Source: an uncultured virus (IMG/VR IMGVR_UViG_3300030376_007335) (lineage: Duplodnaviria > Heunggongvirae > Uroviricota > Caudoviricetes). Taken from it: DNA of 64,000 nucleotides. The stretch lies in IMG/VR virus record IMGVR_UViG_3300030376_007335, positions 1-64,000 of that record; one strand, 5' to 3'. Both the position numbers and the translations under genes were made by a program. Under the pieces are notes generated by a model. That model worked only from the letters and a program-made list of their open reading frames with translations, was not told the DNA's origin and made no database searches. Positions 4,519 through 48,674 of the stretch are shown piece after piece; positions within the stretch are counted from its first letter, which is position 1, and each line of letters starts with the position of its first letter.

Positions 4519-4591
4519 TTTAGGTAATTAATTCCAAAAATTAGTTAACTTAAAATAATCAATATATAAGATATTCAGGTTGTAATTCATC

Positions 4592-5479
4592 ATGCCAGCA
4601 CCAGTAGTAGCTATACCTTTAGCACTTAAAGCACTTAGCGGATTAGGCGGAGCAATAGCCGGTTACCAAAAGGGAGGAGCAAAAGGAGCTCTACTGGGAG
4701 GTGGTTTAGGTTTCGTTGCCCCAGGCGCAATAAGAATGGCAGGAACAGCATTAGGTAGTGCTTTACCAGCAGGTGCTCTTGCAGGAGCGAGTGGAAAATT
4801 AGGTGGATTAGGTGTACAAACAGCTTTAGGCGCAAAAGCATTACCCGCTGGTATGGGTCTTCAAACAGCAGGTAGGGCGTTAGGAGGTGGTTTAGGTAAT
4901 CTTGGAAATATGGTAGCAACACCAGCTGGATTAGGTGGAGCACTCGGACTTGGTGCTGCATACACAGGTCTTTCTGGAGGCTTAGGCGGTAACTTAGGTG
5001 GCGCAGTAGCTGGCCCTGTTGGAGGCGGAGTAGGAAATGCTCTTGGAGCAGGTTATGCATTAGGTGGATATAACATGCCAGGCGCTGGCGGTAACCAGTA
5101 TTATGACCCTAACTTCGGATACACGGGAGCTGGAAGTGCTCTTCCTCCAGGAATGAATAGATGGGGCGGTATTGATCCTTACGGCAACCCTATTGATGTA
5201 CTTAACCCATTAGGTCAAGATGCAGGTCGTCGTACCAGAATGGTTAAAGATGCAGAGACACAACAGAAGGTAATGGATATGTTGATGCCTACTTTAAGGA
5301 AGTATTCAGAGCAAGCTAAGAAAGATGATTTCGAAAGAGGAATGGCTGGTGCAGGTATTAAACAGAATATCCTCACAAATGCGGCGCTCACTCAAAACAT
5401 GCAGAAAGCAGGTCTTGATATGGGTACAACTGCTGCTCAACAAGCTGGTTCTGCTCTAACTCAGAAGTACACCTACTAA
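4592..5479 (+). CDS. Glycine-zipper-rich protein, putative ejection/pilot protein
   Basis: Long run of GxxxG G/A/L repeats then Q/A-rich helical C-terminus. Confidence 0.55.
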   Translation: MPAPVVAIPLALKALSGLGGAIAGYQKGGAKGALLGGGLGFVAPGAIRMAGTALGSALPAGALAGASGKLGGLGVQTALGAKALPAGMGLQTAGRALGGGLGNLGNMVATPAGLGGALGLGAAYTGLSGGLGGNLGGAVAGPVGGGVGNALGAGYALGGYNMPGAGGNQYYDPNFGYTGAGSALPPGMNRWGGIDPYGNPIDVLNPLGQDAGRRTRMVKDAETQQKVMDMLMPTLRKYSEQAKKDDFERGMAGAGIKQNILTNAALTQNMQKAGLDMGTTAAQQAGSALTQKYTY

Positions 5480-7381: not shown

Positions 7382-8905
7382 ATGGCAGGTACAAGTATTT
7401 ATAGCGTTTATCGACGCACCGCAAGAGCTGCTGCTAAACAGCATGTAGTAAAAAAAACTAGCAGTGTTGATGTAGAACGAGCACAAAAAGATTTTGCATA
7501 TTTCTGCGATGTTGTAGGTAATAAACCTCCTGCCGAACATCATAAAGAATGGCATAAATATCTGTGTACAGGAGATAGTAGTGAATGCCTAGCTGATATT
7601 GCCGGACCAAATATTGATATTCTTGCACCAAGAGGATCTGCAAAGTCGACTGTTTTAGGTTTATTTACAGCTTGGTCTATAGGTGTCCATGCTTTAAAAC
7701 GCATGCCTTTGAAAATTTTATATATTTCTTACACAGTTGATGTGGCTAGACCTAAGAGTGCAGCAATTAAGAGAATTATAGAAGAAAGTAAAATTTATAA
7801 AGAGATTTTTCCTAAAGTAAAAATTGCTAAAGGAATTAACTCTAATGAATATTGGAGTATTGATTGGAAGTTTGCAGGTATTAAATCAACTGGTGAAGAG
7901 GAATTCACTGTTTGTTGCGCTGGTTTAAAAGGTGCTGTTACATCAAAACGTTCTCATCTTTGTATTATTGATGACGCAATAAAAAGTGCTGATGACATAA
8001 AAAATAAAGACATTAGACAAGCAATGGAAGATAACTGGAATGCGGTTATCGTTCCCACGATGTTTGAAGGTGCTAGAGCCATTTGCTTAGGAACAAGATT
8101 CCGTCATGACGATATACATCAAAGTACTTTTATTCCTGCAAATGGTTGGGTTCAGATAGTTCAATCTGCAATAACAGTTGATGAAAGTGGAGAGGAAATT
8201 TCTTACTGGCCTAGTATGTGGTCTTTGGATTATTTAGGGGATAGAAGAAGAATTGCTCCGGTGGCTTTTAGTTTTCAATATCAGAATCAAATTGTTCAGA
8301 CAAGTGAATTATCCTTATCACCAGACTTAATTGTTAAAGGAGCTATTTCTACTCAATTTGATGCAATGGGAGTAGGAGTCGACTTATCTGCTGGAGTTCG
8401 AGAGCAAAATGACTACACTGTTTTTGTTATGGGTGGTCGTGTAGGAAATAAGATTCATATTATTGATTGTAAACGAGTTAGGGTGATGGGTAACTTAGAA
8501 AAATTAGATCTTTTAATGGAGATGATGGAAGAATGGGGTGTTATACACAAGGATGGTATTAATTATTTTCCTACTGGAAGTAGCATACATATCTGGTCAG
8601 AAGCTGTTGCTTATCAAGCTTCTTTAGAGGCTGATTTTAAGAGAATTTGTTTAGGTGATCAGGGTTTATACAATCTTATATGGCATCCCGTTAAAGGTTT
8701 TAGAGGAGATAAAGTAGCTCGTTTTAGAGGGATAATGGGTTTGTTTGAACAGAGAAAAATTATCTTTAATAAGTTTAGAAAGTTTGGTCCTTTAACTGAT
8801 GAGATAGTCAACTTTGGTGTGAGTTCGCATGATGATTGTGTTGATGCTTTAGTATGGCTATGTAATGGGTTAATGACCCGAGGAAAACTAGAGTTAGAGT
8901 ATTGA
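7382..8905 (+). CDS. terL: Terminase large subunit
   Basis: Walker A APRGSAKST, Walker B LCIIDD, GTRFRHDD, nuclease motifs GVDLS and HDDCVDAL. Confidence 0.93.
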   Translation: MAGTSIYSVYRRTARAAAKQHVVKKTSSVDVERAQKDFAYFCDVVGNKPPAEHHKEWHKYLCTGDSSECLADIAGPNIDILAPRGSAKSTVLGLFTAWSIGVHALKRMPLKILYISYTVDVARPKSAAIKRIIEESKIYKEIFPKVKIAKGINSNEYWSIDWKFAGIKSTGEEEFTVCCAGLKGAVTSKRSHLCIIDDAIKSADDIKNKDIRQAMEDNWNAVIVPTMFEGARAICLGTRFRHDDIHQSTFIPANGWVQIVQSAITVDESGEEISYWPSMWSLDYLGDRRRIAPVAFSFQYQNQIVQTSELSLSPDLIVKGAISTQFDAMGVGVDLSAGVREQNDYTVFVMGGRVGNKIHIIDCKRVRVMGNLEKLDLLMEMMEEWGVIHKDGINYFPTGSSIHIWSEAVAYQASLEADFKRICLGDQGLYNLIWHPVKGFRGDKVARFRGIMGLFEQRKIIFNKFRKFGPLTDEIVNFGVSSHDDCVDALVWLCNGLMTRGKLELEY

Positions 8906-9133: not shown

Positions 9134-11383
9134 ATGAGAGATAGTAATAGTAAATCTGAACTTGACTCTATTCTTAAGTCAGTAATAGAGCGTGATGGAA
9201 CTGGGCCAGCTGATACCATGCTGGTAAATGCCCATCTTTCCCAAATGAAAATGTTTGGGATACGTCAGGGAGTTGAGTTTTATCCACACCAAGATAATTT
9301 TGGAACACAACGTTTTGATTTTGTTCAGCAGGTTATTAAATTTAATAAGTTAGATGCTCGACTTGATTCAATTTGGGATAGATTTTTGGCCTATGGAAAA
9401 GGGTTATTTTATATAAGACCTACTAAAAAAACTTACAGAATTTACTGGTTTGATAAAGATTCTTATCGTAGTTACTATTCTCCAGAAGGTGAGTTAGAAG
9501 AAGTAATTATCATTTATCCTTACAAGGTTAGATCATCAAAAGGATTTAAAGGAGTTGGTTTAAGTACTAATAAACGTTATATGCGTTTACGTATAACTGC
9601 TGAAACTATTGAAGAATTTCATAGTGAACAGGAAATAAGTTTTGATCAAGATACTGTTAACTTTGCAACGTTTGATAAGAAGACTGTTGAAAATAGTATG
9701 CAGTTTATACCTTGCGTTGAGGTATTTAATAATCCTGATGCATTTGGTACTGATGGAGCTGGTGAATTTGAGTGGTTATCTAATCAAATAATTGCTCATG
9801 ATGAGATGGTCAAGAATATTAGAGCTAACCTATCATTCTTTGGTAATCCAACTCTTTTATCTTCTAGACCTAAGCAAGATATTATTGAAAATAATGATGA
9901 AGTTGTACAGCGTCCAAGTATATCTAGTCAATCAGGATTTACTTCAGACTTAGATTTATTCAGTTCTACTTATAAACAAGATCCAACTACTAGACAAAGA
10001 GCTGGTTACATAGGAAAACCAGGTAGTGGGATGAGAGTTCCTCGTGTTATTGCAAACTTAGAACCTTCAGATAGGGTTGGGTTTATTACTCCAAATGCAG
10101 TAAGTACTGATCAGGCAAGATACTCCGAACAATTAAGAAGTGAAATTCGTCTTGCGCTAGGGGGAATTGATGATTTAAGTATTACAAATGTAACTGCTAC
10201 TGAAATTAAATCTGCATATGGACGAGTTAGTGCAACTGCAAAGAAAAAATGCTTACAACTTTACACTTACGGCATATGTAAATGCTTTGAATTAATTATT
10301 TTCCAAGAAGAACAGATTTTCCGTAAATCATTAGCCTACGCTTCTGGTATTAAATATCCAGAACCTCCAGAAGATCCAGAGGATCCAAAAGCTGTTGAAA
10401 AGTATGAAAAACAGAAGGCTAAATATGAACAGAAACTTGAGGCTGCTATTGACTTAGCGGTTGAGACAAAGGAGATTCCAGACGGTGTTTTAGGTTTAGC
10501 TCCAGACGGGGATAGAACCGTTTTATGGCGCTGGATGGGACCTGTTTATGAAGATACTGCACAGGATAAATTAAACCAATCTATCTTCACACGAAACCTT
10601 CAAGAATTGGGTGTTGATAGTATAGAAGCACTGAAGTATTTATTCCCATCCAAAACGGATGATGAGATTGCCGGAATGCTTTCCGGTTTTCCATTCCGTA
10701 TGGTTGGGGAAGTACAGCGGGCTTATTCTTCATTCATTGATCTAATCAATCAAGAAATGAGGACTCCGCATCCGCAACAGCCTAATTTACCTATGGCAGC
10801 GGATCCGAGACTAGATCTCACCCCGTTTCTATACCGAACACTCGAATCATTACAGAAGGAAGTAACCTATGCAGGAAGCTACCGTAGCGCCGACCCAATC
10901 GGCACCCCAAGCATCCCAGACCCAGCCGACCAGCTACGTGGCTCCAGCAGCCCAAACAGCAGCTCAGGCTTCAACAGTCTCTACCAACCCACAATGGGTG
11001 GCGCCCTCCCAGCCGATGGCGGTACCAGCACCTCAAGTGCAAGCCCAGATGGGGGTACAGGCACCAATATCAGCCCCTACAGCGTACAGCCCCCAGGTAT
11101 CCCAGGCTCCCCAACAACAGGAGAATCCTTACAAGGACGCCTTCAACAGGGTAGTAGGTCTGCTGAGTTCTCCAGTCCAATTCCCGTTCCAGGGTCAACC
11201 ATCGACTCAGAGCCAAGGAATAGACCAGGCGAATTACGGTTCCCCACAAACGACCCAATACGCCAACCAGGTAGCGCCGACCTCTATGCCTGGGATCAAC
11301 AACAACCCGGCTTACTCGGACAACTCTTCCCTAACTTCGCAGGAAATAACAGCGGATCAGCTCCTCGCAAACGGAGTAAGTGA
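9134..11383 (+). CDS. Portal protein with long disordered C-terminal extension
   Basis: Position after TerL, size, FIPCVEVFNN motif; last ~171 codons overlap next ORF. Confidence 0.75.
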   Translation: MRDSNSKSELDSILKSVIERDGTGPADTMLVNAHLSQMKMFGIRQGVEFYPHQDNFGTQRFDFVQQVIKFNKLDARLDSIWDRFLAYGKGLFYIRPTKKTYRIYWFDKDSYRSYYSPEGELEEVIIIYPYKVRSSKGFKGVGLSTNKRYMRLRITAETIEEFHSEQEISFDQDTVNFATFDKKTVENSMQFIPCVEVFNNPDAFGTDGAGEFEWLSNQIIAHDEMVKNIRANLSFFGNPTLLSSRPKQDIIENNDEVVQRPSISSQSGFTSDLDLFSSTYKQDPTTRQRAGYIGKPGSGMRVPRVIANLEPSDRVGFITPNAVSTDQARYSEQLRSEIRLALGGIDDLSITNVTATEIKSAYGRVSATAKKKCLQLYTYGICKCFELIIFQEEQIFRKSLAYASGIKYPEPPEDPEDPKAVEKYEKQKAKYEQKLEAAIDLAVETKEIPDGVLGLAPDGDRTVLWRWMGPVYEDTAQDKLNQSIFTRNLQELGVDSIEALKYLFPSKTDDEIAGMLSGFPFRMVGEVQRAYSSFIDLINQEMRTPHPQQPNLPMAADPRLDLTPFLYRTLESLQKEVTYAGSYRSADPIGTPSIPDPADQLRGSSSPNSSSGFNSLYQPTMGGALPADGGTSTSSASPDGGTGTNISPYSVQPPGIPGSPTTGESLQGRLQQGSRSAEFSSPIPVPGSTIDSEPRNRPGELRFPTNDPIRQPGSADLYAWDQQQPGLLGQLFPNFAGNNSGSAPRKRSK

Positions 11384-11879
11384 AGAGAGTCTTCAGGTTA
11401 TTGACAATTTCGGCCCTGATGCACCAGCTGCACTTAATAAGTATGCTTGTGATATTGAAGACGCTTTAATTACAACTAACCAACAGTTAGGCGAAGCAGT
11501 AGGTTTATTAAAAGAGCTTTCAGCAGAACATAAAGCTTATGAGTCAATTCTGACTAATCCAGACGTTCTCGCAGATTATACTGTTGAGTTCTTTGGACAG
11601 AACGGACCATATCCAGTAAATAGTTCAAACGCTCCTCAGACACAGGTTGCTCAAGCACCTCGTCCAGTAGCTACAAATACTTCTGCTACTCAGGCTCCTG
11701 CTCCTCAGAGACCTGAAATGCCTGTTCCTCCACAGCCTCAAGCACAGGGAAATCCAACTGACTTCTGGAATAACTTCGGAAGCGCAGCTGATAGAGATCC
11801 ACAAAATGCTTGGCGTTATTTGAACGCTGCTCAGCAGAATCCTGAAGTCTTCCGTCAGAAGCTTCTTGTAATGGAGTAA
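10869..11879 (+). CDS. Capsid scaffolding-like protein, overprinted on portal 3' end
   Basis: Own SD-like AAGGAAG; P/Q/A-rich with coiled segments; lies between portal and MCP. Confidence 0.7.
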   Translation: MQEATVAPTQSAPQASQTQPTSYVAPAAQTAAQASTVSTNPQWVAPSQPMAVPAPQVQAQMGVQAPISAPTAYSPQVSQAPQQQENPYKDAFNRVVGLLSSPVQFPFQGQPSTQSQGIDQANYGSPQTTQYANQVAPTSMPGINNNPAYSDNSSLTSQEITADQLLANGVSEESLQVIDNFGPDAPAALNKYACDIEDALITTNQQLGEAVGLLKELSAEHKAYESILTNPDVLADYTVEFFGQNGPYPVNSSNAPQTQVAQAPRPVATNTSATQAPAPQRPEMPVPPQPQAQGNPTDFWNNFGSAADRDPQNAWRYLNAAQQNPEVFRQKLLVME

Positions 11880-11892
11880 AACTCTTAAATAA

Positions 11893-11918
11893 GGGGTAGG
11901 TTGTCTACCCCACTTTTT
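11893..11918 (+). terminator. Rho-independent terminator-like hairpin
   Basis: GGGGTAG-gttgt-CTACCCC followed by acTTTTT. Confidence 0.55.
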
Positions 11919-11924
11919 ATAAAC

Positions 11925-12341
11925 ATGGCAAAAAAGAAGAAAGTAAGAAAAAGGGCTGAAGAATTTATTGCCGCAATCGGTACTGCTGGGGGACCAATTG
12001 GCTCTCCAGGTTTAGTCGATTTTGGTGGTACAGACTTACAAGCTCAAATTTTTGCTGGTAATAGCGATCAATATGCTCCTATTCGAATGCGTCAAGGCGA
12101 TACAAGAATTGGCGATGCAGCTGCCATGCCTAGTGATTTAGATGCTTCTTATCTGAAGCTCAACTTACCTGGTTCTCCATTACCTAATAATGGTTTATTT
12201 GCAGCTAGTAATGTAGATCAAGCTGGTTTTTATCAAGATCAAATATTAGCTCAACAACAACAATTTAGAGATCAATTTGTAAATCCTGTGGGATATAGTC
12301 AACTACCCGTAGGTTACCCTCCTGCTGCACCTAAAAAATGA
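11925..12341 (+). CDS. Hypothetical protein (start moved to ATG 11925)
   Basis: Track start 11901 lies inside the hairpin; MAKKKKVRKRAEEFIAAIG. Confidence 0.6.
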   Translation: MAKKKKVRKRAEEFIAAIGTAGGPIGSPGLVDFGGTDLQAQIFAGNSDQYAPIRMRQGDTRIGDAAAMPSDLDASYLKLNLPGSPLPNNGLFAASNVDQAGFYQDQILAQQQQFRDQFVNPVGYSQLPVGYPPAAPKK

Positions 12342-12562
12342 ACGAAGCTAAAGCAAAAGAAGCTGTAGATAAAGCAGTTCAACACCAACAAATAGCGGCT
12401 CTTATGGCTGAACAAGAGCAAGTAAAGCAGCCTGACTTACAGCCAAAAGATGGATATATTAATCCTTACGGAAGAATAGGAACTGTACCTCCTACAACAT
12501 ATTCTGCTACAAACCAATTAGATGGAACGACTACTCAATCTGTAGTCGATCCTTGGACTTAA
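12338..12562 (+). CDS. Hypothetical protein
   Basis: ATGA overlap with upstream stop; 74 aa. Confidence 0.55.
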   Translation: MNEAKAKEAVDKAVQHQQIAALMAEQEQVKQPDLQPKDGYINPYGRIGTVPPTTYSATNQLDGTTTQSVVDPWT

Positions 12563-12695: not shown

Positions 12696-13841
12696 ATGTT
12701 TATTGATAACGATTTCCCGAAACTGCTGGGTGCGGAATTATACCGCCCTCATCCAGCGTATGTCGTGGAGATGGCATCAGAACCAGTCGTAGTACACGAC
12801 TTTACCAAGCAACCTGGTCAGACTGTTCAGTTAGACCGCTACAGGTTCTTTGGTAACCCTGGCACAAAGACAAACCGTGAGCGTACTCAGGATCAAACCA
12901 TAGGTACAGCTAACAGTAGGTCTATTGTCAAGGACAAAGTTCTGGTCTCCCTCCGTGAATACACAGGACCAGCAGATCCTAATAACGCAAATCTTCCTAG
13001 CACATTCAAGATTGCTAGAGAGACTTTGATGACAGCTCAGCGTCTACTGCTTGATACTGGGAACCTTAATATGTTCCACCAGTCAATCGGTTCGCTGACT
13101 TTACTTGACGACTATCGTCGTTGGCGTGACCGTGTCTTCCTAGACGAGCTATTCAAATCTGAATCTCGTGGTGCATCTTCTGATTCACAAGGTGGTTACT
13201 ACTATCCAAATGGAAAGACAAAGAGTGCTACTACAACTCTAAATGCATACAGTGCTACAGAATATGCTTCTGAGCGCTTTAAGTTTAATGTTAAAACTGA
13301 CCTCCTTGAGGTAGTTAAGAGTCTACGTAAGCGTCACGTTCCTGTCTTCGCAGACGGCTACTATCGTTGTATCGCTGACCCTTCATTCATGAAGGATCTT
13401 CGTGCCGATCAAGGCTTCCGTGAAGTTGCACGTTACCCAGGTATGGGTCAGCCTAACCCTCTTATGGGTTCTATGGCACCTAACCAAGCTATTTACTCAG
13501 GTGGTCAGTACGGACAAGCTCAGTTCGTAGCTGGTGAGCCTGTAATGCCTTCTGGGTTCGTGTTTGAAGGAGTAAGATTCTTCGAATCTACAAACTTCCC
13601 ATCTAAAACCATTACGGTCGATATTGGTGACGGTGGCGGTGCAGTTTCCAAAACAACTCCTGCAGGACTATTCTTCGGTCCACAGGCAATCGGTGTTGGT
13701 ATTGGTGGTCCAAATGCTCAAGTTCTTATTAACAATAATGACGACTTCAGCAGATTCATCATTCTCATATGGCAGCTATACGCTGGCTTTGCGAACTTGA
13801 ATAAGGACTTCATTACTACTGCCTTCACGATTTCTGAATAA
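12696..13841 (+). CDS. Major capsid protein (HK97 fold, N4-gp56-like)
   Basis: 381 aa; C/T-ending high-expression codon bias; PGQTVQLDRY, FEGVRFFEST, LFFGPQAIG motifs; position in head module. Confidence 0.85.
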   Translation: MFIDNDFPKLLGAELYRPHPAYVVEMASEPVVVHDFTKQPGQTVQLDRYRFFGNPGTKTNRERTQDQTIGTANSRSIVKDKVLVSLREYTGPADPNNANLPSTFKIARETLMTAQRLLLDTGNLNMFHQSIGSLTLLDDYRRWRDRVFLDELFKSESRGASSDSQGGYYYPNGKTKSATTTLNAYSATEYASERFKFNVKTDLLEVVKSLRKRHVPVFADGYYRCIADPSFMKDLRADQGFREVARYPGMGQPNPLMGSMAPNQAIYSGGQYGQAQFVAGEPVMPSGFVFEGVRFFESTNFPSKTITVDIGDGGGAVSKTTPAGLFFGPQAIGVGIGGPNAQVLINNNDDFSRFIILIWQLYAGFANLNKDFITTAFTISE

Positions 13842-23446: not shown

Positions 23447-24517
23447 ATGGCTCTTAATGTTGTTAGCTCAGACAGACTAAGCACTAACGTAAAGATTTCA
23501 AACTTAGCTACAGGTCTTTCAGATAAAGTTGGTCAAAGTAAAAATATAATAATTAATGGTGCAATGAATGTTGCTCAAAGAGGGACTTCAACAACCACTA
23601 CCAATACTATGTGTGTTGATAGATATAAATGCTTTTTTGCTGGTACAGATGAAAATCAAACATTTGCACAAGTAGCTTTAACTTCTAGTGACACTGGCCC
23701 TTGGGCTAAAGGTTTTAGAAATGCTCTTCAAATTACTAATGGTAATCAAACAGGTGGAGCTGCTGGTGCAGATGAAACTGTTCTTTATCACCAAATAGAA
23801 GCTCAAGATTTGGCTAATTCTGGTTGGGATTACACTTCAGCCAGTAGTTATGCAACGCTTTCTTTTTGGGTTAAATCTAGTGTAGCTCAAACTTTCTATG
23901 GTTATATAGCAACTTCAGATGGTACATCTCAGATGTATCTTTTTTCTACAGGAGCTTTATCAGTAAACACCTGGAAAAAAGTAACCGTCAAAATCCCAGG
24001 TAATACCAATGTTCAATTTGATAACAATAATGGAGTTGGACTAGGCATTAGTTTTGGTCCATATTATGGAACAGATTACACAACTTCAGGAGCCACTTTA
24101 GGAACATGGACGGCTTGGAATGGAGCTGCAAGAAATCCAGACAATACAACTACTTGGTTTACAACAAATGATTCTACTTATGCAATTACAGGGGTTCAGT
24201 TAGAAGCAGGTGATACAGCTACAGAGTTTGAACATAGATCGTATCGTGATGACTTAGCTAGGTGTCAGAGGTATTGCTATATACCTGTATATGCTAGTGA
24301 AAAAGGACCATACGCTTTTAAATATCATACATCTTATAAAGCAGCACAAGAATTTTTCCCCGTTACTATGAGAGCTATACCAACTTGTACTATGACTTAT
24401 AGTGCTGGATCATGGACTACATACTACCCAGGTACGAATCATTTTAAAGCTTATGTAGAAGCGGCTGATGGTGACATAAGACGTATAGCAAGTGCTAAAT
24501 TTGAGGCGGAGCTTTGA
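23447..24517 (+). CDS. Tail fibre/receptor-binding protein, paralog 1
   Basis: NIIINGAMNVAQRG...ITGVQLEAG..ATEFEHRS...LARCQRY; SD AAGGAGG. Confidence 0.75.
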   Translation: MALNVVSSDRLSTNVKISNLATGLSDKVGQSKNIIINGAMNVAQRGTSTTTTNTMCVDRYKCFFAGTDENQTFAQVALTSSDTGPWAKGFRNALQITNGNQTGGAAGADETVLYHQIEAQDLANSGWDYTSASSYATLSFWVKSSVAQTFYGYIATSDGTSQMYLFSTGALSVNTWKKVTVKIPGNTNVQFDNNNGVGLGISFGPYYGTDYTTSGATLGTWTAWNGAARNPDNTTTWFTTNDSTYAITGVQLEAGDTATEFEHRSYRDDLARCQRYCYIPVYASEKGPYAFKYHTSYKAAQEFFPVTMRAIPTCTMTYSAGSWTTYYPGTNHFKAYVEAADGDIRRIASAKFEAEL

Positions 24518-24967: not shown

Positions 24968-25669
24968 ATGCCATATATAGGTAATAATTTACAAGTTGCA
25001 TTTGAAAGCTATAAAGCGATTGATGATATAAGCAGTAGCTTCAATGGCACAACAACAGCTTTTAATCTTCATGTAAGCGGAGTAACTCCTAGTCCTTTTC
25101 CAAAAGTACCTCAGAATTGTTTAATTTCAGTCGGTGGTGTTCTACAAGAACCAGATGATACAGGTACTACAGGTTTTAAATTTAATGCAAGTAATCAAAT
25201 ACTTTTTAGTTCTGCTCCAGCAGCAGGAGAATCATTTTTTGGTGTAATTCTTGCAGGTGCAGATTATGTAAACGTAGGTGCTCATTTCCCTGTAGGTACA
25301 TTAGGCGCACCAAGTATTACCTTTGACGGGGATGAAGATACAGGAATCTATAGACCAGCAGCTAATACAGTAGCTATTGTTTCTGGTGGAACTAAAGTTG
25401 CACAATTCCCTACAACTGGAGGAACGTCAGGTTATGTTTTAATCTCAGATGGAGGAGGAACTTTAAGTTGGGCAGAACAATCAGGAGGAGGAGCAACTGG
25501 TGGTGGTTCAGATAAAATATTTATTGAAAATGGTCAGACAGTAACAACTAATTATGAAATAGGAACTGAATTAGGAGCTGTATGTAACGCTGGTAGCTTT
25601 GGACCGATTACAATTAATGCTGGAGTCACAGTTACGATTCCATCTGGCGAAAACTGGACAATCGTTTAA
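24968..25669 (+). CDS. Tail fibre-associated protein
   Basis: MPYIGN..IDDISSSFNG, ISVGGVLQEP, GGATGGGSDKIFIEN. Confidence 0.7.
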   Translation: MPYIGNNLQVAFESYKAIDDISSSFNGTTTAFNLHVSGVTPSPFPKVPQNCLISVGGVLQEPDDTGTTGFKFNASNQILFSSAPAAGESFFGVILAGADYVNVGAHFPVGTLGAPSITFDGDEDTGIYRPAANTVAIVSGGTKVAQFPTTGGTSGYVLISDGGGTLSWAEQSGGGATGGGSDKIFIENGQTVTTNYEIGTELGAVCNAGSFGPITINAGVTVTIPSGENWTIV

Positions 25670-26930: not shown

Positions 26931-27176
26931 ATGGCAATAGAACATAACGTACAAACAAATGAGATTAAAACAGTTGAAACTGGTGAGACTGCTACAGCAA
27001 CACCAGCTATTGATATTTTAAGATCTACTAGAGATAGACTGCTACGAGAAACAGATTATTATGCTTTGTCAGATGTAAATATGTCTGAAGATATGAAGAC
27101 ATATAGACAGGCTCTTAGAGATTTACCTGCCAATACATCAGATCCTAGTAAGCCTACTTACCCGACAAAACCATGA
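26931..27176 (+). CDS. Tail fibre assembly chaperone-like protein
   Basis: RDRLLRETDYYALSD...YRQALRDLP...PTKP. Confidence 0.7.
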   Translation: MAIEHNVQTNEIKTVETGETATATPAIDILRSTRDRLLRETDYYALSDVNMSEDMKTYRQALRDLPANTSDPSKPTYPTKP

Positions 27177-28348
27177 GTACATTAAAAGTCAACGCAATCA
27201 GGCAAACAACAGCAACAAGTGATGCTGTTACCTTGGCAAGCGATGGAACGTGTACCGTTAAGGCTACTAATAAAAGCAACAGAAATTTGATAATTAATGG
27301 TGCAATGCAAGTTGCTCAGAGAGGTACTTCATCTACCACTGCTGGCTTTGGTAGTCTCGATAGATTTCAAGGGGTTTCAGGTGGTGGTGAGGAAGCTTGT
27401 ACACATTCACAACATGCTTTAACTTCAAGTGATACTGGTCCTTGGGCTGAAGGTTTTAGATATTCTTTCCATTTCCAAAATGGTAACCAAACAGGAGGTG
27501 CAGGTTCTAATGATTATGCGTATATAGGATATGGAGTTGAAGCTCAAGATTTAGCACAGTCAGGATGGGATTACACTTCAGCCAGTAGTTATATAACGCT
27601 TTCTTTCTGGGTCAAATGTAGTGTTGCAGGACTGCAGTATGGTTTTATGCAAACTCCTGACGGAACTGGACAAGGTTTCTCTTTTTCACTTGGTAATTTA
27701 TCAGCTAATACTTGGACAAAAGTAACTGTAAAAATCCCTGGAAATTCCAATATAACGATTAATAATGATACTGGTCCTGGGCTGTGGATCCACACGGGGC
27801 CATTTTGGGGGACTGATTACACAGATTCAGGCAATACTTTAAATACATGGGCAGCTTATAGTAGCTCAAGTAGAACGCCAGATTTTCCTAGTACATGGTG
27901 GACAACAAATGATGCAACATTTGAAATTACAGGTGTTCAGTTAGAAGTAGGAGACGTTGCCACTGACTTTGAACATAGATCGTATGAGGAAGAACTTCAA
28001 AAATGCTATAGATATTGTCAAAGATATGATACAGGTGGTGATACTTACAGATTCGTGTGTCAAGGTAATGTTGATAATGATGGTAATAATCTGTCAATGA
28101 TGCTGCCATTTATTACGCCCTTTAGAAGTAAACCTACTTCTATGACAACAACAGGTACAGCAGGAGATTATGCAGTTAGAAGAGATACAAGCAAAGATTG
28201 TACGTCTGTTCCTACATTTGGTTCTACATCACCATTTACTACTCAGATAACTTTTGTTTCTAGTAGTCATGGTTGGACAACAGGACAGAGTGTGAAAGCT
28301 TGGCTCAAATCTTCTGGATCTTATCTAATCTTTAGTGCGGAGCTTTAA
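27173..28348 (+). CDS. Tail fibre/receptor-binding protein, paralog 2
   Basis: Same core domain as 23447-24517 and 47184-48674. Confidence 0.75.
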   Translation: MSTLKVNAIRQTTATSDAVTLASDGTCTVKATNKSNRNLIINGAMQVAQRGTSSTTAGFGSLDRFQGVSGGGEEACTHSQHALTSSDTGPWAEGFRYSFHFQNGNQTGGAGSNDYAYIGYGVEAQDLAQSGWDYTSASSYITLSFWVKCSVAGLQYGFMQTPDGTGQGFSFSLGNLSANTWTKVTVKIPGNSNITINNDTGPGLWIHTGPFWGTDYTDSGNTLNTWAAYSSSSRTPDFPSTWWTTNDATFEITGVQLEVGDVATDFEHRSYEEELQKCYRYCQRYDTGGDTYRFVCQGNVDNDGNNLSMMLPFITPFRSKPTSMTTTGTAGDYAVRRDTSKDCTSVPTFGSTSPFTTQITFVSSSHGWTTGQSVKAWLKSSGSYLIFSAEL

Positions 28349-28992: not shown

Positions 28993-29241
28993 ATGCAAAA
29001 AGTTGTCAACATCATTGCTCTTGCGTCTGGCGTTGTATCTATTGCCGTTGTCGGCAGTGGTTTATTTATATATGTCAACAGAGATAAACTTGTTAATGAC
29101 GTCAAGTCTCAAGTTCTTAAATCAGTTGGTGGATCACTTCCTGGGTTAGTTGATACAAAACTTCCAAAAATGTCTGGTCCTGCGATGGCACCACAAGCTG
29201 GAGGTGCAGCTAAGTTAGGTAGTTTAGGACTTCCTAAATAG
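28993..29241 (+). CDS. Small membrane protein
   Basis: N-terminal TM segment MQKVVNIIALASGVVS. Confidence 0.6.
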   Translation: MQKVVNIIALASGVVSIAVVGSGLFIYVNRDKLVNDVKSQVLKSVGGSLPGLVDTKLPKMSGPAMAPQAGGAAKLGSLGLPK

Positions 29242-30002
29242 TGTCTGAGATACCTAATGTCCAGATAAGGGACATAGGGGTACATACAGTTCCAATTTGG
29301 TCGATATATCAACCCGTTACAACACCTTCTGCGCCACCTGTAACGGTTAATATAGGCTTACCTATTGTTGATATGCCTGGTTGTGTTGAGTGGCATCCAG
29401 AGGACAAGAGGGCGGGTGCTTTAACTTTAGAAGATCCTAAAGGTGTAAAGACTTTCTGTCCTAATGGACAATATCCTTCGTTTAATGCGATGGATTACAC
29501 CCCTGAGAATTTAATTATCACAGAAGAGGTACCTCCTCCAGCTCTTAATAATCCTGAAGCGCCTTCTCCTCCAACTCCAAATACTGATATTCCTGATATT
29601 CCTAGTGAAAAAGATGAGGAAGTTGAGTGTCCTGGACCTAATGACCAGCGAATAGGCGATCTGAGAAATGCACTAGGTAAGGAAAAAGTAGTATCGCACG
29701 AGTTAGTTAATGGAAAATGTATAACTCTTTATGAAGAGACAACTGTAGTAGATAAGTTTGTCCCAACTACAGCCCAAGTAGTGAACACAGCCCAAATTGC
29801 ACTTGTGGCGGCAACTATGCCTTTACTTATAGCTGCTGTAAAACCCGCTGTTGCTCAATTAATTAAAAGAATACCTAAATTATTAGGTCGTAAGAGTAAG
29901 GAAGTTCTTTCTACTTCTCAGAAATTGGCTCGCCAACGCTCAGAGTTTCAAGACCAGAAGAAGAAGAACCAGATTGGTCAGAAGAAGAGGAAGAAGAAGT
30001 AA
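29241..30002 (+). CDS. Pro/Cys-containing membrane-anchored protein
   Basis: PIVDMPGCVE, CPGP, C-terminal hydrophobic segment and basic tail. Confidence 0.6.
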   Translation: MSEIPNVQIRDIGVHTVPIWSIYQPVTTPSAPPVTVNIGLPIVDMPGCVEWHPEDKRAGALTLEDPKGVKTFCPNGQYPSFNAMDYTPENLIITEEVPPPALNNPEAPSPPTPNTDIPDIPSEKDEEVECPGPNDQRIGDLRNALGKEKVVSHELVNGKCITLYEETTVVDKFVPTTAQVVNTAQIALVAATMPLLIAAVKPAVAQLIKRIPKLLGRKSKEVLSTSQKLARQRSEFQDQKKKNQIGQKKRKKK

Positions 30003-30822
30003 CAGGAATACTATGAATATGTTGAGGTAATGTTCCAGGAGGATTTAAAAGTACTACGTCTGCACAAATTGCGGCATATTTTGACTTCGGATGGAACATT
30101 ATTCCAGATTTCATGAGTTCTCCACAATTTTTAAGACGTGCTATTTCAAAATCTAAACGTTTATTAGCAGTAAGTTGTTTGACGTACGCAATTCTGTTAT
30201 CTGCAGCTGATTTACACCTTCTTTGAAGACCTCCATCTAGTGGAACAGATATTGTTGCTGATATTCCATAATTGAAATTAAATTGGTCTTTCTGTCCCGT
30301 TCTGGTAGGGACATGGTAGAGAATTTTTCCTGGGTTATCTACTACTCCATCATTATTAGCATCCGAAGTGTCAAACACCGGGTCATTATAGTAATATTCC
30401 CTAGGTTGCTGAAAGCTGTGACTGTCGGTCAGGAATGGTGTGATGTTTAAAGTAGGACCTTGGCAACTGATTCCATCTCCGTAGGTATTGGTAATATAGG
30501 GTCCCTGTAAAACCTGGATGGCTTGGTTCGTAACTGACCCACTACTATTAGCAACAGGATTAGCAGTGGCACTAACACCACCGACGTCGCCAGCGCGTAC
30601 TGCTGTGGGGAATAGTGCATTCGCATTGAGTAATACTAATAAAAGGTAGCTTAATTGCTGAATGTTGATGTTGTGTCGGTCACGCTTTGGATTTCGGTGA
30701 CTCTCTGAATTATTGTTTGATTGACCATCCCTGGAGCTCGGTATGTTTCTGTAAATTGAAAGCTTCCACCAGGATTTGTTATTGTCCAGTTTGGTTTGTT
30801 TGCAGCGTCTAGACCTGTCCAT
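29911..30822 (-). CDS. Secreted/outer-membrane-like protein (true start probably near 30650-30700)
   Basis: Signal-like LLLVLLNANALFPTAVRA then ANPVANSSGSVTNQAIQVLQGPY; RLDFEIARLKNCG. Confidence 0.6.
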   Translation of the reverse strand: MDRSRRCKQTKLDNNKSWWKLSIYRNIPSSRDGQSNNNSESHRNPKRDRHNINIQQLSYLLLVLLNANALFPTAVRAGDVGGVSATANPVANSSGSVTNQAIQVLQGPYITNTYGDGISCQGPTLNITPFLTDSHSFQQPREYYYNDPVFDTSDANNDGVVDNPGKILYHVPTRTGQKDQFNFNYGISATISVPLDGGLQRRCKSAADNRIAYVKQLTANKRLDFEIARLKNCGELMKSGIMFHPKSKYAAICADVVLLNPPGTLPQHIHSIPVTSSSSSSDQSGSSSSGLETLSVGEPISEK

Positions 30823-47183: not shown

Positions 47184-48674
47184 ATGCCATACTTAGGTAA
47201 AGAACCTGTTAGAGGCCAGAATCGTGAATTAGACGATATATCTGGAAGTTTTAATGGAGGTAATACTGCATTCACAATGCAAGTAGGAGGTGTTAATACT
47301 GCAGCTGGAAGTGCAAATCAAGTATTTATAAGTGTTGGTGGAGTTATGCAAAATCCAGGAACGGATTTTACAGTAGCTTCTAGTACGATTACATTTACAA
47401 CACCCCCTGCTAATGGTTTAGATTTCTGGGGATTAATTCAAGGAGATGCAGTTGATATAAATACACCAGCAGATGGAAGTGTTACTAATGCAAAAGTTGC
47501 TACAGGAGCAGCAATAGCAGGCAGCAAATTAGCTGATAATGCTGTTGGACTTGCTCAAATGGCAGGTGGTACAGATGGTAATTTAATTACATATGATGCT
47601 TCTGGAGATCCAGCACACGTTGCTACAGGAAGTAGCGGACAAGTCTTAACTTCTAACGGTGCAGGAGCAGCTCCGACTTTTCAAGCTACTTCAGATGCAG
47701 GTCAAGCACATAATTTAATAGTTAATGGTGCAATGAAAGTCGCTCAAAGAGGAACCTCAGATACGACCGACGCACAAGGTTTTACAACTGTAGATAGATG
47801 GCGAATTACATGGAGTGGTTTAGAAGAAGAAGTAAGTAAATATCAAGAACAATTAACTTCTAGTGATGCTGGCCCTTGGGAATTAGGATTCAGAAATGCT
47901 TGGAAAATACAAAATGGCAACCAAACTGGAGGTGCTGATGCTGGTGGTTATATTAATCCTCAATATGCAGTAGAAGCACAAGATATTGCTAATTCAGGAT
48001 GGGATTACACTTCAGCTTCAAGTTATATAACACTTTCTTTTTGGGTCAAATCAAGTGTTTCTCAAACTTTCTATGGATATTTGAGAAGCATGGATGGTAC
48101 TAATCAAGCATATTCTTTCTCTTATAGTGCATCTAGTACCTGGACAAAAGTAACTAAAACAATTCCTGGTAATTCAAATATTCAAATTGATAATAATAAT
48201 GACTCTGGACTGTATCTATTCTTACCTACTTTCTTAGGAACTGATAGAACGAATGCAGGTAACACTGAGAATACATGGGCAGCTTATAGCGGTTCCAATA
48301 GAACAAAACCTTCAACAACCACTTGGTATACAACAAATGATGCAACTTGGCATATAACTGGTGTTCAATTAGAAGTGGGGGATTCTGCTACAACTTTTGA
48401 ACATAGATCCTTTGGTGATGAATTAGCTAGGTGTCAGAGGTATTATTGGCAAGAAACAGGAATAACTTTCTTTTTGTATCAGTACAGCAGTTCACACAAA
48501 CAAATAAGGATTCAACATCCTGTACCAATGAGAGCTACACCAACAGAAACTTTGACTGGTAGTGGTATCACAGCAGATAGCGAAACTAATCAATTTTATA
48601 GTGCTTATGCTGCTAGTGCTTATGATGGTGCTAATAAATTCTATAGTGCAGTGAAATTCGAGGCGGAGATTTAA
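47184..48674 (+). CDS. Tail fibre/receptor-binding protein, paralog 3
   Basis: N-terminus like 24968 gene (LDDISGSFNG); C-terminal core like 23447 and 27173 genes. Confidence 0.75.
   Translation: MPYLGKEPVRGQNRELDDISGSFNGGNTAFTMQVGGVNTAAGSANQVFISVGGVMQNPGTDFTVASSTITFTTPPANGLDFWGLIQGDAVDINTPADGSVTNAKVATGAAIAGSKLADNAVGLAQMAGGTDGNLITYDASGDPAHVATGSSGQVLTSNGAGAAPTFQATSDAGQAHNLIVNGAMKVAQRGTSDTTDAQGFTTVDRWRITWSGLEEEVSKYQEQLTSSDAGPWELGFRNAWKIQNGNQTGGADAGGYINPQYAVEAQDIANSGWDYTSASSYITLSFWVKSSVSQTFYGYLRSMDGTNQAYSFSYSASSTWTKVTKTIPGNSNIQIDNNNDSGLYLFLPTFLGTDRTNAGNTENTWAAYSGSNRTKPSTTTWYTTNDATWHITGVQLEVGDSATTFEHRSFGDELARCQRYYWQETGITFFLYQYSSSHKQIRIQHPVPMRATPTETLTGSGITADSETNQFYSAYAASAYDGANKFYSAVKFEAEI

Follow-up and report, generated by a model that had tools for sequence, protein, structure and literature searches.

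A conserved out-of-frame overlap of 515 nt between the portal gene and a scaffold-like gene, with purifying selection on both frames, in a lineage of tailed phages

We analysed a stretch of 64,000 nt from an uncultured virus of the Caudoviricetes, a marine cyanophage (IMG/VR record IMGVR_UViG_3300030376_007335, positions 1 to 64,000), hereafter the window, in which two genes of the head module overlap out of frame. The genes at the locus are the following.

7382..8905, + strand: large terminase gene (context); phrog_38 E 2.7e-75, Pfam Terminase_6C
9134..11383, + strand: portal gene, 749 aa; core, residues 1-577, and C-terminal tail, residues 579-749
10869..11879, + strand: downstream head-module gene, scaffold-like, ORF of 336 aa
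10869..11383, + strand: segment shared by the two ORFs, most probably dual-coding, 515 nt; portal residues 579-749 and downstream-protein residues 1-171
12696..13841, + strand: major capsid protein gene (context); phrog_1357 E 5e-15

The ORF order and the PHROG matches place the downstream gene between the portal and the major capsid genes, and the two ORFs bear out the 515-nt overlap of portal and scaffold genes that a first-pass annotation of this DNA had proposed at 10869..11383. From the coordinates, the downstream gene is read in +1 with respect to the portal frame and its third codon positions are therefore portal first positions, as had been stated. Within the segment, the third forward frame holds 9 stops and the three reverse frames hold 3, 6 and 9, so that the portal and downstream frames are the only open ones; outside the overlap, 171 codons of either frame contain 9-16 stops. 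The G+C fraction is 0.55-0.62 within the overlap versus approximately 0.29-0.49 in the flanks.

The portal protein matches phrog_20475 over residues 5-741 (E 2.3e-215) and the phrog_64 portal at E 1.5e-4. Its AF2 model (pLDDT 75, pTM 0.68) is predicted to have the portal fold, since almost all of the Foldseek PDB matches listed are phage portal or portal-tail structures (best E 1.1e-10, probability 1.00). In this model the core is folded up to residue 577 and the tail stays below pLDDT 50 except at residues 680-693; the low pLDDT over residues 604-749 fits the long disordered portal tail suggested earlier. Mean identity is 0.66 in the tail versus 0.89 in the core. Four stretches of the tail are of interest.

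10868..10942, + strand: block better conserved in the portal frame (YAGSYRSADPIGTPSIPDPADQLRG)
11174..11200, + strand: portal-tail motif SPIPVPGST, in general form P-x-P-G-x-T
11270..11338, + strand: portal-tail motif GSADLYAWDQQQPGLLGQLFPNF, conserved in the portal frame
11363..11380, + strand: basic portal C-terminus PRKRSK, with the stop codon directly after it at 11381-11383

Among 77 sequences, pairwise identity over 10868-10927 averaged 0.90-0.93 in the portal frame and 0.72-0.79 in the other frame, and over 11258-11347 it was 0.77-0.82 versus 0.52-0.71. The SPIPVPGST region coincides with the local pLDDT peak (54-79) at residues 680-693, and P-x-P-G-x-T is found in portals down to approximately 38% identity as well as in a distant portal subfamily. 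The motif further downstream takes the form ADL..QPG(I/L)L.QLFP(N/T)F in P0009, P0013, P0019, P0031 and P0040, and basic C-terminal ends also occur in distant portals.

The protein encoded downstream is predicted to be built of three parts, and the block conserved in its own frame lies in the first of them.

Residues 1-160: predicted disordered N-terminal arm
Residues 162-242: predicted helical domain
Residues 296-329: predicted C-terminal helix pair
11124..11198, + strand: block better conserved in the downstream frame (NPYKDAFNRVVGLLSSPVQFPFQGQ), holding the sole predicted helix of the N-terminal arm

In the AF2 model, residues 1-160 are below pLDDT 50 except for a helix at 87-100 (pLDDT 58-68), and helices span 162-242 and 296-329. 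Identity over 11138-11197 reaches 0.93 in the downstream frame versus 0.62-0.79 in the portal frame. We found no family match for this protein in Pfam or PHROGs, and Pfam searches with 36 of its homologues returned low-complexity matches only, such as CCDC53. A profile search of the PDB gave a best E of 0.34, and a Foldseek search of the PDB with the model gave nothing at E <= 0.001; among Pfam-bearing clusters of the atlas, those nearest to it are scaffold families, with scores that all stay below 0.8. The name "scaffold" given to this gene in the first-pass annotation thus agrees with its position and its predicted helical shape but finds no family or fold match behind it, and we use "scaffold-like" on the basis of position and predicted structure.

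The overlap starts where the portal core ends and stops at the helical part of the downstream protein, and thus encodes two predicted disordered arms. Their sequences are unrelated, the portal arm being rich in S, P and G and the downstream arm in Q, A and P, and the conserved motifs alternate between the two frames along the overlap.

The downstream gene has a start signal of its own, composed of a conserved ATG, a purine-rich run and a stop one codon upstream.

10856..10862, + strand: Shine-Dalgarno-like AAGGAAG, 6 nt before the downstream ATG, within portal K-E codons
10863..10865, + strand: TAA stop in the downstream (+1) frame, one codon ahead of the ATG

The ATG in the +1 frame and its AAGGAAG had both been noticed in the first reading, and the run lies where it had been described. 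Variants AAGGAG, AAAGAGG and AAGGAAG occupy this site in 158 relatives, forming a purine-rich run 6-7 nt 5' of the start, and in 153 of the 158 the upstream stop is separated from the ATG by one codon. Across three closer clades, all evaluable loci carry the downstream ATG (GTG in 2 loci) at the same junction, apart from L162 and L212, whose first ATG comes 22 and 19 nt later. L176 and L177, considered as further exceptions with a first ATG that would leave a 74-nt overlap, were rejected as such given that GTG is used at the usual junction.

It could be argued that only the portal tail is functional, that the downstream protein starts late, at ATG 11286 or at an internal Met, and that the openness of the +1 frame upstream is a by-product of composition. 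Consistent with this, the GenBank record of Synechococcus phage S-EIVl (KJ410740), the sole GenBank phage that matches both proteins, annotates only the last, non-overlapping 133 codons of the downstream gene (L001 4577..4978). However, the internal Met of S-EIVl is not conserved and is Val in the window, and the start at the usual junction is kept in the three closer clades. In the downstream frame of the window, ATG, GTG and TTG are absent between 11286 and 11718, hence a start early enough to include the folded domain must fall inside the portal gene, and even the latest usable one, ATG 11286, leaves 98 nt of overlap with it. Moreover, the NPYKDAFNRVVGLLSSPVQFPFQGQ block is better conserved in the +1 frame than in the portal frame.

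Both frames are open, and the arrangement is kept, throughout the portal family. The first-pass annotation had proposed an alignment of homologues to look for the absence of stops, and in three locus sets with no locus in common both frames were open in 158/158, 74/74 and 8/8 evaluable sequences. The first set, made of the window and 161 loci minus 4 ended by contig ends, covers the S-EIVl and close (marine) clades, and all of its members have the +1 arrangement with overlaps of 464-692 nt. The second is a third clade, for which 80 loci were fetched and 6 incomplete ones left out, with 72 ATG starts (overlap 443-584 nt) and 2 GTG starts at the same junction (503 nt); it takes in three portals that are 38-39% identical to that of the window over the last 280 core residues. 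In the distant portal subfamily the 8 loci overlap by 146-398 nt. The portal tail, whose length ranges from approximately 45 to 230 residues in the family, is free of stops in all 240 evaluable sequences, the arrangement was kept while the portal diverged to approximately 30% identity, and even the most distant relatives retrieved have both arms. In IMG/VR, two scans each matched more than 600 related contigs; the single-protein queries P0067 and P0013, which returned no relatives in IMG/VR, were replaced by the alignment queries A1 and A2.

This breadth leaves a practically negligible chance that an assembly or sequencing indel fused or shifted the ORFs, as the cultured S-EIVl and the evaluable sequences drawn from many metagenomes share the same frames. 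Contigs from two other studies align to the window without gaps, at 0-7 differences, over 10919-11199, 11169-11301 and 11282-11700. The independent metagenome contigs over the first two of these intervals are identical to it, and the only indels listed, in variant contigs of run X3 at 11061-11068, are +2, -1 and -1 and cancel out.

Codon usage in the segment is as the first-pass annotation had described, and its hand counts of T-ending downstream codons were reproduced exactly: 5 of the first 50 codons inside the overlap (24/171 overall) and 21 of the first 50 past the portal stop (73/164 overall). The P/Q/A stretch at 11630-11710, outside the overlap, is indeed rich in such codons (16/28). 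We shuffled codons in 19 sequences, with 1000 trials each. Recoding of the downstream protein of the window according to background codon usage gave an open portal frame in 0/1000 trials and a mean of 12.4 stops, which excludes chance; when synonymous codons were instead permuted inside the region, 3.7% of trials kept the frame open. Among the 19 sequences, the corresponding figures were 0-0.3%, with 6-15 stops, and 0-8.5%. Recoding the portal tail alone gave a different picture, with the downstream frame open in 9-23% of trials in the window and in up to 72% in one marine sequence (L044), so that in the window and in some marine sequences the absence of stops is by itself no proof of the downstream frame. 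These values speak in favour of a late start of the downstream protein. In the S-EIVl clade, however, the +1 frame stayed open in just 0-5.6% of such recodings.

Each class of substitution was scaled to the flanking synonymous rate for disjoint pairs, 37 from the marine and 35 from the S-EIVl clade. Changes that alter the portal and are silent downstream occurred at 0.42 (95% bootstrap 0.35-0.48) of the flank rate in the marine clade and at 0.43 (0.36-0.49) in the S-EIVl clade, and those that are silent in the portal and alter the downstream protein at 0.31 (0.25-0.36) and 0.25 (0.21-0.29), respectively; the pairs are disjoint but the sequences are related, with 50 near-identical locus pairs within the sets, and these ratios may be distorted where synonymous sites of the more divergent pairs are saturated. 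Changes that alter both proteins were at 0.17 and 0.15, and doubly silent changes in the overlap at 1.44 and 1.18. As a negative control, a fake second frame was assigned to single-coding flanks, where changes silent in the real frame and altering the fake one were at 0.94-1.09 (0.96-1.01 for a fake +1 frame in the portal core, 0.94-1.09 for a fake portal frame in the scaffold-only part). The synonymous-suppression test put forward in the first-pass annotation therefore returns 0.25-0.43 of the flank rate in the two frames against 0.94-1.09 in the control. Constraint was found in both frames across all three thirds of the overlap, and in the first third the portal-silent, downstream-changing class was at 0.19-0.25 of neutral. 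We conclude that purifying selection acts separately on each of the two frames; conservation, substitution rates and codon shuffles all agree with the earlier reading that selection keeps both of them open.

These rates bear on two opposite one-frame readings. A late start of the downstream protein, with a meaningless +1 frame ahead of it, is hard to reconcile with 0.25-0.31 in the overlap as opposed to 0.96-1.01 in the fake frame, and we consider it very unlikely. Conversely, only the downstream gene might matter, the portal tail being a translated but functionless read-through extension, open by compositional accident. The predicted disorder of the tail, its lower conservation relative to the core and its variable length would all fit. 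Yet changes that alter the tail and are silent downstream are well below the fake-frame rate, recoding with background codon usage closes the portal frame almost without exception, no stop was found in the tail in any clade, and P-x-P-G-x-T, ADL..QPGxLxQLFP and the basic end persist to approximately 38% portal identity. We therefore regard a functionless tail as most improbable.

As an alternative to selection on two independently started frames, the first reading had offered a programmed frameshift. Such a shift might join the frames besides or in place of independent initiation, a +1 shift giving a portal-scaffold fusion and a -1 shift a hybrid protein that ends with the portal tail. Approximately 170 codons of two open frames leave room for it, and frameshift products are known from phage late operons. 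Among the 158 sequences, however, we found no conserved slippery heptamer leading into the partner frame. Of the X_XXY_YYZ heptamers, just one is widely shared, C_CCA_AAC in the portal frame (153/158), and a -1 slip there leads into the third frame and to a stop within 17 codons (F-P-N site, L001); CCCAAAC was accordingly rejected as a slippery site, being made of conserved F-P-N codons and shifting into a closed frame. In the downstream frame the best heptamers are GGGAAAC (35/158) and GGGAAAT (16/158). Given this heptamer search and the conserved start and ribosome-binding run of the second frame, we assign only a slim chance to a frameshift.

Considering all the above results, we favour, with a probability of roughly 85%, the reading that the segment is a true and ancient case of dual coding, in which a single late mRNA serves both frames. 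Ribosomes that start at the portal ATG (9134) would continue as far as 11383, so that the folded portal core is extended by 171 mostly disordered residues, rich in S, P and G and basic at their end. Other ribosomes would initiate independently at ATG 10869 by means of its own purine-rich ribosome-binding run and, reading in +1, produce the 336-residue protein, which begins with a disordered arm of approximately 160 residues rich in Q, A and P. The shared DNA would thus encode two flexible arms, sequence of a kind that tolerates a double constraint, with the two frames taking turns in bearing the conserved motif. Through the codons chosen in each frame, with T scarce at downstream third positions and G+C high, stops would be kept out of the other frame. 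We infer that both frames are translated in this way; metatranscriptome contigs span parts of the segment, although these may contain DNA carry-over and we do not take them as proof of expression. Portal C-termini are located inside the capsid in solved portals, and by analogy the tail probably lies there too, where its basic end could contact DNA or the scaffold. A complex prediction for the portal core (1-600) with the downstream arm (1-175) scored 0.00 and gives no answer either way.

It is also conceivable, though we think it unlikely, that co-encoding is itself functional, the arms having been born by ancient overprinting and the overlap being now required. In one version, portal-translating ribosomes that cross the internal start would set the portal-to-scaffold ratio; in the other, a rare +1 shift would link portal and scaffold covalently, and this fusion would nucleate assembly of the procapsid at the portal vertex.

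The preferred dual-coding reading has parallels in known systems. The lambda Rz/Rz1 and phiX174 gene pairs are out-of-frame overprinted phage genes, and in such pairs each gene has its own start, both are selected and the overlapping parts tend to disorder. Our case resembles them in that two proteins come from one strand in different frames. Those examples involve a short embedded gene of a lysis cassette or tiny ssDNA genomes, whereas here two core head genes of a tailed phage of approximately 80 kb overlap end to end by approximately 0.5 kb, in an arrangement conserved over a portal family down to approximately 30% identity. In the lambda C/Nu3 type, head-assembly proteins encoded ahead of the capsid gene likewise have coding DNA in common, a scaffold being nested in a protease gene. 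That nesting is in the same frame, so the products share amino acids, while the present frames are +1 to each other and their products are unrelated in sequence. The tail assembly chaperone G/GT and the T7 capsid proteins 10A/10B are frameshift products of late operons, and they too draw two frames from one stretch of a late structural operon. They do so from one start and a slippery site, the second frame having no start of its own, in contrast to the conserved start and the lack of a conserved slippery site into the partner frame observed here.

Both proteins can also be compared with those of P22. The C-terminal extension of P22 gp1 is a helical barrel, and the present portal resembles gp1 in carrying a long extension with a basic end past the last core helix of the portal fold; the extension here is instead predicted to be disordered except for two short motifs and is co-encoded with another gene. 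P22 gp8-like scaffolding proteins carry a C-terminal helix-turn-helix. The downstream gene resembles theirs in lying between portal and capsid genes and in its predicted all-helical product with a conserved C-terminal helix pair, but differs by the lack of a scaffold-family match and by the additional 160-residue N-terminal arm predicted to be disordered.

Long out-of-frame overlaps are commonly viewed as a trait of tiny viruses, and an overlap of this length between core head genes is rare for a large tailed phage. The accessible part of a survey of 12,609 virus genomes gives a median +1 overlap of 14 nt (IQR 8-26; PMC8903798), in line with the earlier remark that overlaps this long are unusual. 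We found no published description of the portal/downstream overlap. An uncultured marine lineage related to S-EIVl has been described (bioRxiv 10.1101/325100), and the accessible part of that preprint does not mention the overlap.

That two core head-assembly genes share approximately 0.5 kb in a globally common lineage of marine and freshwater cyanophages offers a natural and deeply sampled system for the evolution of two proteins on one stretch of DNA. The portal tail and the scaffold arm would represent two uncharacterised, conserved disordered arms at the place where procapsid assembly starts. The finding also matters for annotation: the genes of S-EIVl follow the same order and show a comparable overlap of 554 nt, and approximately 190 codons of a structural gene have been missed by gene callers and in the GenBank record of this cultured member.

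The portal gene of the window shares 515 nt with the gene downstream of it, which is read in the +1 frame, and substitution rates indicate that purifying selection acts on both frames. The elements concerned are the following.

9134..11383, plus strand: portal ORF, 749 codons
10869..11879, plus strand: scaffold-like downstream ORF, +1 frame, 336 codons
10869..11383, plus strand: dual-coded segment

These ORF coordinates, together with an AAGGAAG 6 nt upstream of the second ATG (10869), bear out the segment proposed in the first-pass annotation, whose codon counts we reproduced exactly: T-ending codons of the downstream frame number 5 among the first 50 inside the overlap (24/171 in all) against 21 among the first 50 past it (73/164 in all), and 16/28 in the P/Q/A stretch at 11630-11710. 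An in-frame TAA stands one codon before the downstream ATG. Within 10869..11383 the third forward frame contains nine stops and the minus frames three to nine, and the G+C content is 0.55-0.62 vs about 0.29-0.49 in the surroundings.

The first ORF is a portal gene: it matches phrog_20475 over residues 5-741 (E 2e-215), and among the PDB matches listed by Foldseek for its AF2 model (pLDDT 75, pTM 0.68), with E values reaching 1e-10, nearly all represent phage portals or portal-tail structures. A large terminase gene lies 5' of it and a major capsid protein gene on the downstream side; with tail-fibre, primase and DNA-polymerase genes elsewhere in the window, this gene content is that of a tailed-phage genome. 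Searches of Pfam, PHROG and PDB returned no relative of the downstream protein, and its model gave no fold match. The label scaffold is reasonable but unproven: the gene sits between those for portal and capsid, the protein is predicted to be helical, and the atlas offered weak leads, none reaching 0.8, to scaffold families.

The same arrangement was found in related loci, where both frames were open, as the first-pass annotation had suggested checking, in every evaluable case (158/158, 74/74 and 8/8).

Occurrence of the overlap in three sets of portal loci
Window (marine) clade and S-EIVl clade: +1 arrangement in 158/158; overlap 464-692 nt
Third clade (alignment query A1): ATG start in 72/74, overlap 443-584 nt; GTG at the same junction in L176 and L177, 503 nt
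Distant portal subfamily (query A2, about 30-33% identical): +1 overlap in 8/8; 146-398 nt

The first set comprised the window and 161 fetched loci (four contigs end early), the best 80 being kept from each of two scans, either of which hit some 600 related contigs or more; 80 loci were fetched for the third clade, six of which run off the contig, and eight for the distant subfamily. No locus is common to two sets, and 50 near-identical pairs within sets make the counts partly non-independent. In the first set the internal ATG occupies a single alignment column, with a stop one codon 5' in 153/158. Among the third-clade portals are three that share only 38-39% identity with that of the window across the final 280 residues of the core, and the portal-tail motifs and basic end remain recognisable down to about 38% identity. 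A scan of 1.84 billion representative proteins yielded 312 members of the portal family.

The only GenBank phage matched was the Synechococcus phage S-EIVl, whose portal is 54% identical and in which both frames are likewise open, over 554 nt; its record annotates the downstream gene for the last 133 codons only (4577..4978 of the locus L001). With the conserved start, this frame spans 4001-4978 of L001 (KJ410740 59287-60264, 325 aa), so that some 190 codons of this head-module gene lack annotation. In L176 (4212-5243) and L177, where GTG replaces ATG, the portal reads T-Y-S-G instead of T-Y-A-G. Within the distant subfamily, the downstream gene of L247 and L248 begins at the junction (overlap 146-179 nt), and in the long-tailed members of L242-L249 it starts 80-100 nt past it (305-398 nt); therefore, the start position moved during evolution.

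We classed single-site differences by their effect in each frame in disjoint, moderately diverged pairs (37 from the marine clade, 35 from the S-EIVl clade). Counts were corrected for opportunity with kappa 2, and the rates below are ratios to the synonymous rate in the single-coding flanks.

Relative substitution rates (pairwise counts; alignment uncertain in low-complexity stretches)
Portal-only changes: marine 0.42 (0.35-0.48); S-EIVl clade 0.43 (0.36-0.49)
Downstream-protein-only changes: marine 0.31 (0.25-0.36); S-EIVl clade 0.25 (0.21-0.29)
Changes altering both proteins: marine 0.17; S-EIVl clade 0.15
Doubly silent changes: marine 1.44; S-EIVl clade 1.18
Non-synonymous, portal core: marine 0.10; S-EIVl clade 0.10
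Non-synonymous, downstream gene outside overlap: marine 0.21; S-EIVl clade 0.14

When a fake second frame was imposed on the flanks, changes silent in the real frame and altering the fake one occurred at 0.94-1.09. Because the single-frame rates fall well below this control, they show purifying selection on both frames, consistent with the earlier proposal that selection keeps both open and with the synonymous-site suppression for which it suggested testing. Constraint was seen in both frames within every third of the overlap, and setting kappa to 1 or 3 did not alter the picture. Doubly silent sites are near neutral, which argues against a constraint at the nucleotide level, such as RNA structure.

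Synonymous recoding (19 sequences, 1000 trials each) gave a similar result. With the downstream protein kept and codons drawn from the phage's flanking usage, 6-15 stops arose in the portal frame, which was free of them in 0-0.3% of trials; when the region's own synonymous codons were permuted instead, so that composition was unchanged, only 0-8.5% of trials kept this frame open (window 3.7%). The converse test was weaker in the window's clade: the downstream frame remained free of stops in 9-23% of the window's trials and, in one sequence, in as many as 72%. For the S-EIVl clade this test was strong (0-5.6%). Beyond the overlap, the number of stops in these two frames is 9-16 per 171 codons.

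The first-pass annotation had alternatively proposed a programmed frameshift yielding a portal-scaffold fusion, which we consider quite unlikely. Only one slippery-type heptamer, C_CCA_AAC, is widely shared (153/158; window 11326-11335, portal frame), but a -1 slip there would lead into the closed third frame and not into the partner, and no heptamer candidate of the downstream frame is present in more than 35/158 sequences. The heptamer encodes an F-P-N motif, with S-Q-T in the other frame of most relatives and L-T in the window, and its conservation is probably a by-product of the double constraint. An assembly artefact creating the overlapping ORFs is exceedingly improbable, given that two other studies yielded contigs that align to the window gap-free across most of the segment and that the only indels found in variant contigs add up to zero. 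RNA-library contigs cover the segment in part, portal stop included, although this is not proof of transcription. In the variant-strain contigs (run X3), a 2-base insertion and two deletions of one base each fall in an 8-nt stretch (11061-11068), which is either a locally compensated frameshift rewriting 2-3 codons per frame or divergent-strain alignment noise.

Structural models predict that the dual-coded DNA encodes two flexible arms, since the overlap begins after the last portal core helix (563-577; the internal ATG falls at residue 579) and ends at the helical domain of the downstream protein (portal stop at its residue 172). The long disordered portal tail anticipated earlier is indeed predicted, with pLDDT below 50 for residues 604-749 except 680-693; the downstream model is disordered up to residue 160 save a helix at 87-100, followed by helices at 162-242 and 296-329. 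In composition the portal arm is rich in S, P and G and the downstream arm in Q, A and P, and the lead in conservation switches along the segment: the portal frame is better conserved at 10868-10927 (0.90-0.93 vs 0.72-0.79) and again at 11258-11347, the downstream frame at 10958-11047 and 11138-11197 (0.93 vs 0.62-0.79). The window's downstream frame has no possible start codon between 11286 and 11718, and therefore its folded domain requires initiation inside the portal gene; a start at or before 11049 is needed to include the conserved helix of the arm.

We propose that a single late message gives two products through independent initiation, that the dual-coded segment supplies each of them with its disordered arm, and that the codons used in either frame are limited to those that leave the other free of stops. 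In solved portals the C-terminus generally faces the capsid interior. By analogy, we infer that the portal tails may lie inside the capsid and the downstream protein may act as a scaffold, in which case twelve basic-ended tails would sit with the scaffold and the DNA end.

Out-of-frame overlapping genes in general are already known. In tailed phages, those such as Rz/Rz1 are short and embedded, and head genes are known to use in-frame nesting or frameshifting. Two surveys report a median of 14 nt for +1 overlaps (IQR 8-26), with DNA-virus overlaps generally short (PMC8903798), and a length below 50 nt for 84% of overlaps (PMC7017920). No description of the present overlap turned up among the listed matches of full-text queries about portal, scaffold and overlapping genes, among the listed papers naming S-EIV1, or in passages of a preprint on the marine lineage.

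Two small ORFs separate the scaffold-like and capsid genes, 11901-12341 (146 aa, TTG start) and 12338-12562 (74 aa), overlapping by 4 nt and without a match in Pfam or PHROG. Elsewhere, three paralogous tail-fibre-like genes (23447-24517, 27173-28348 and 47184-48674) match phrog_4492 (E 1e-40 to 1e-44), an N-terminal phrog_18673 module is common to 24968-25669 and 47184-48674, and the 3' ends of the convergent ORFs 29241-30002 (+) and 29911-30822 (-), both putative genes, share 92 nt.
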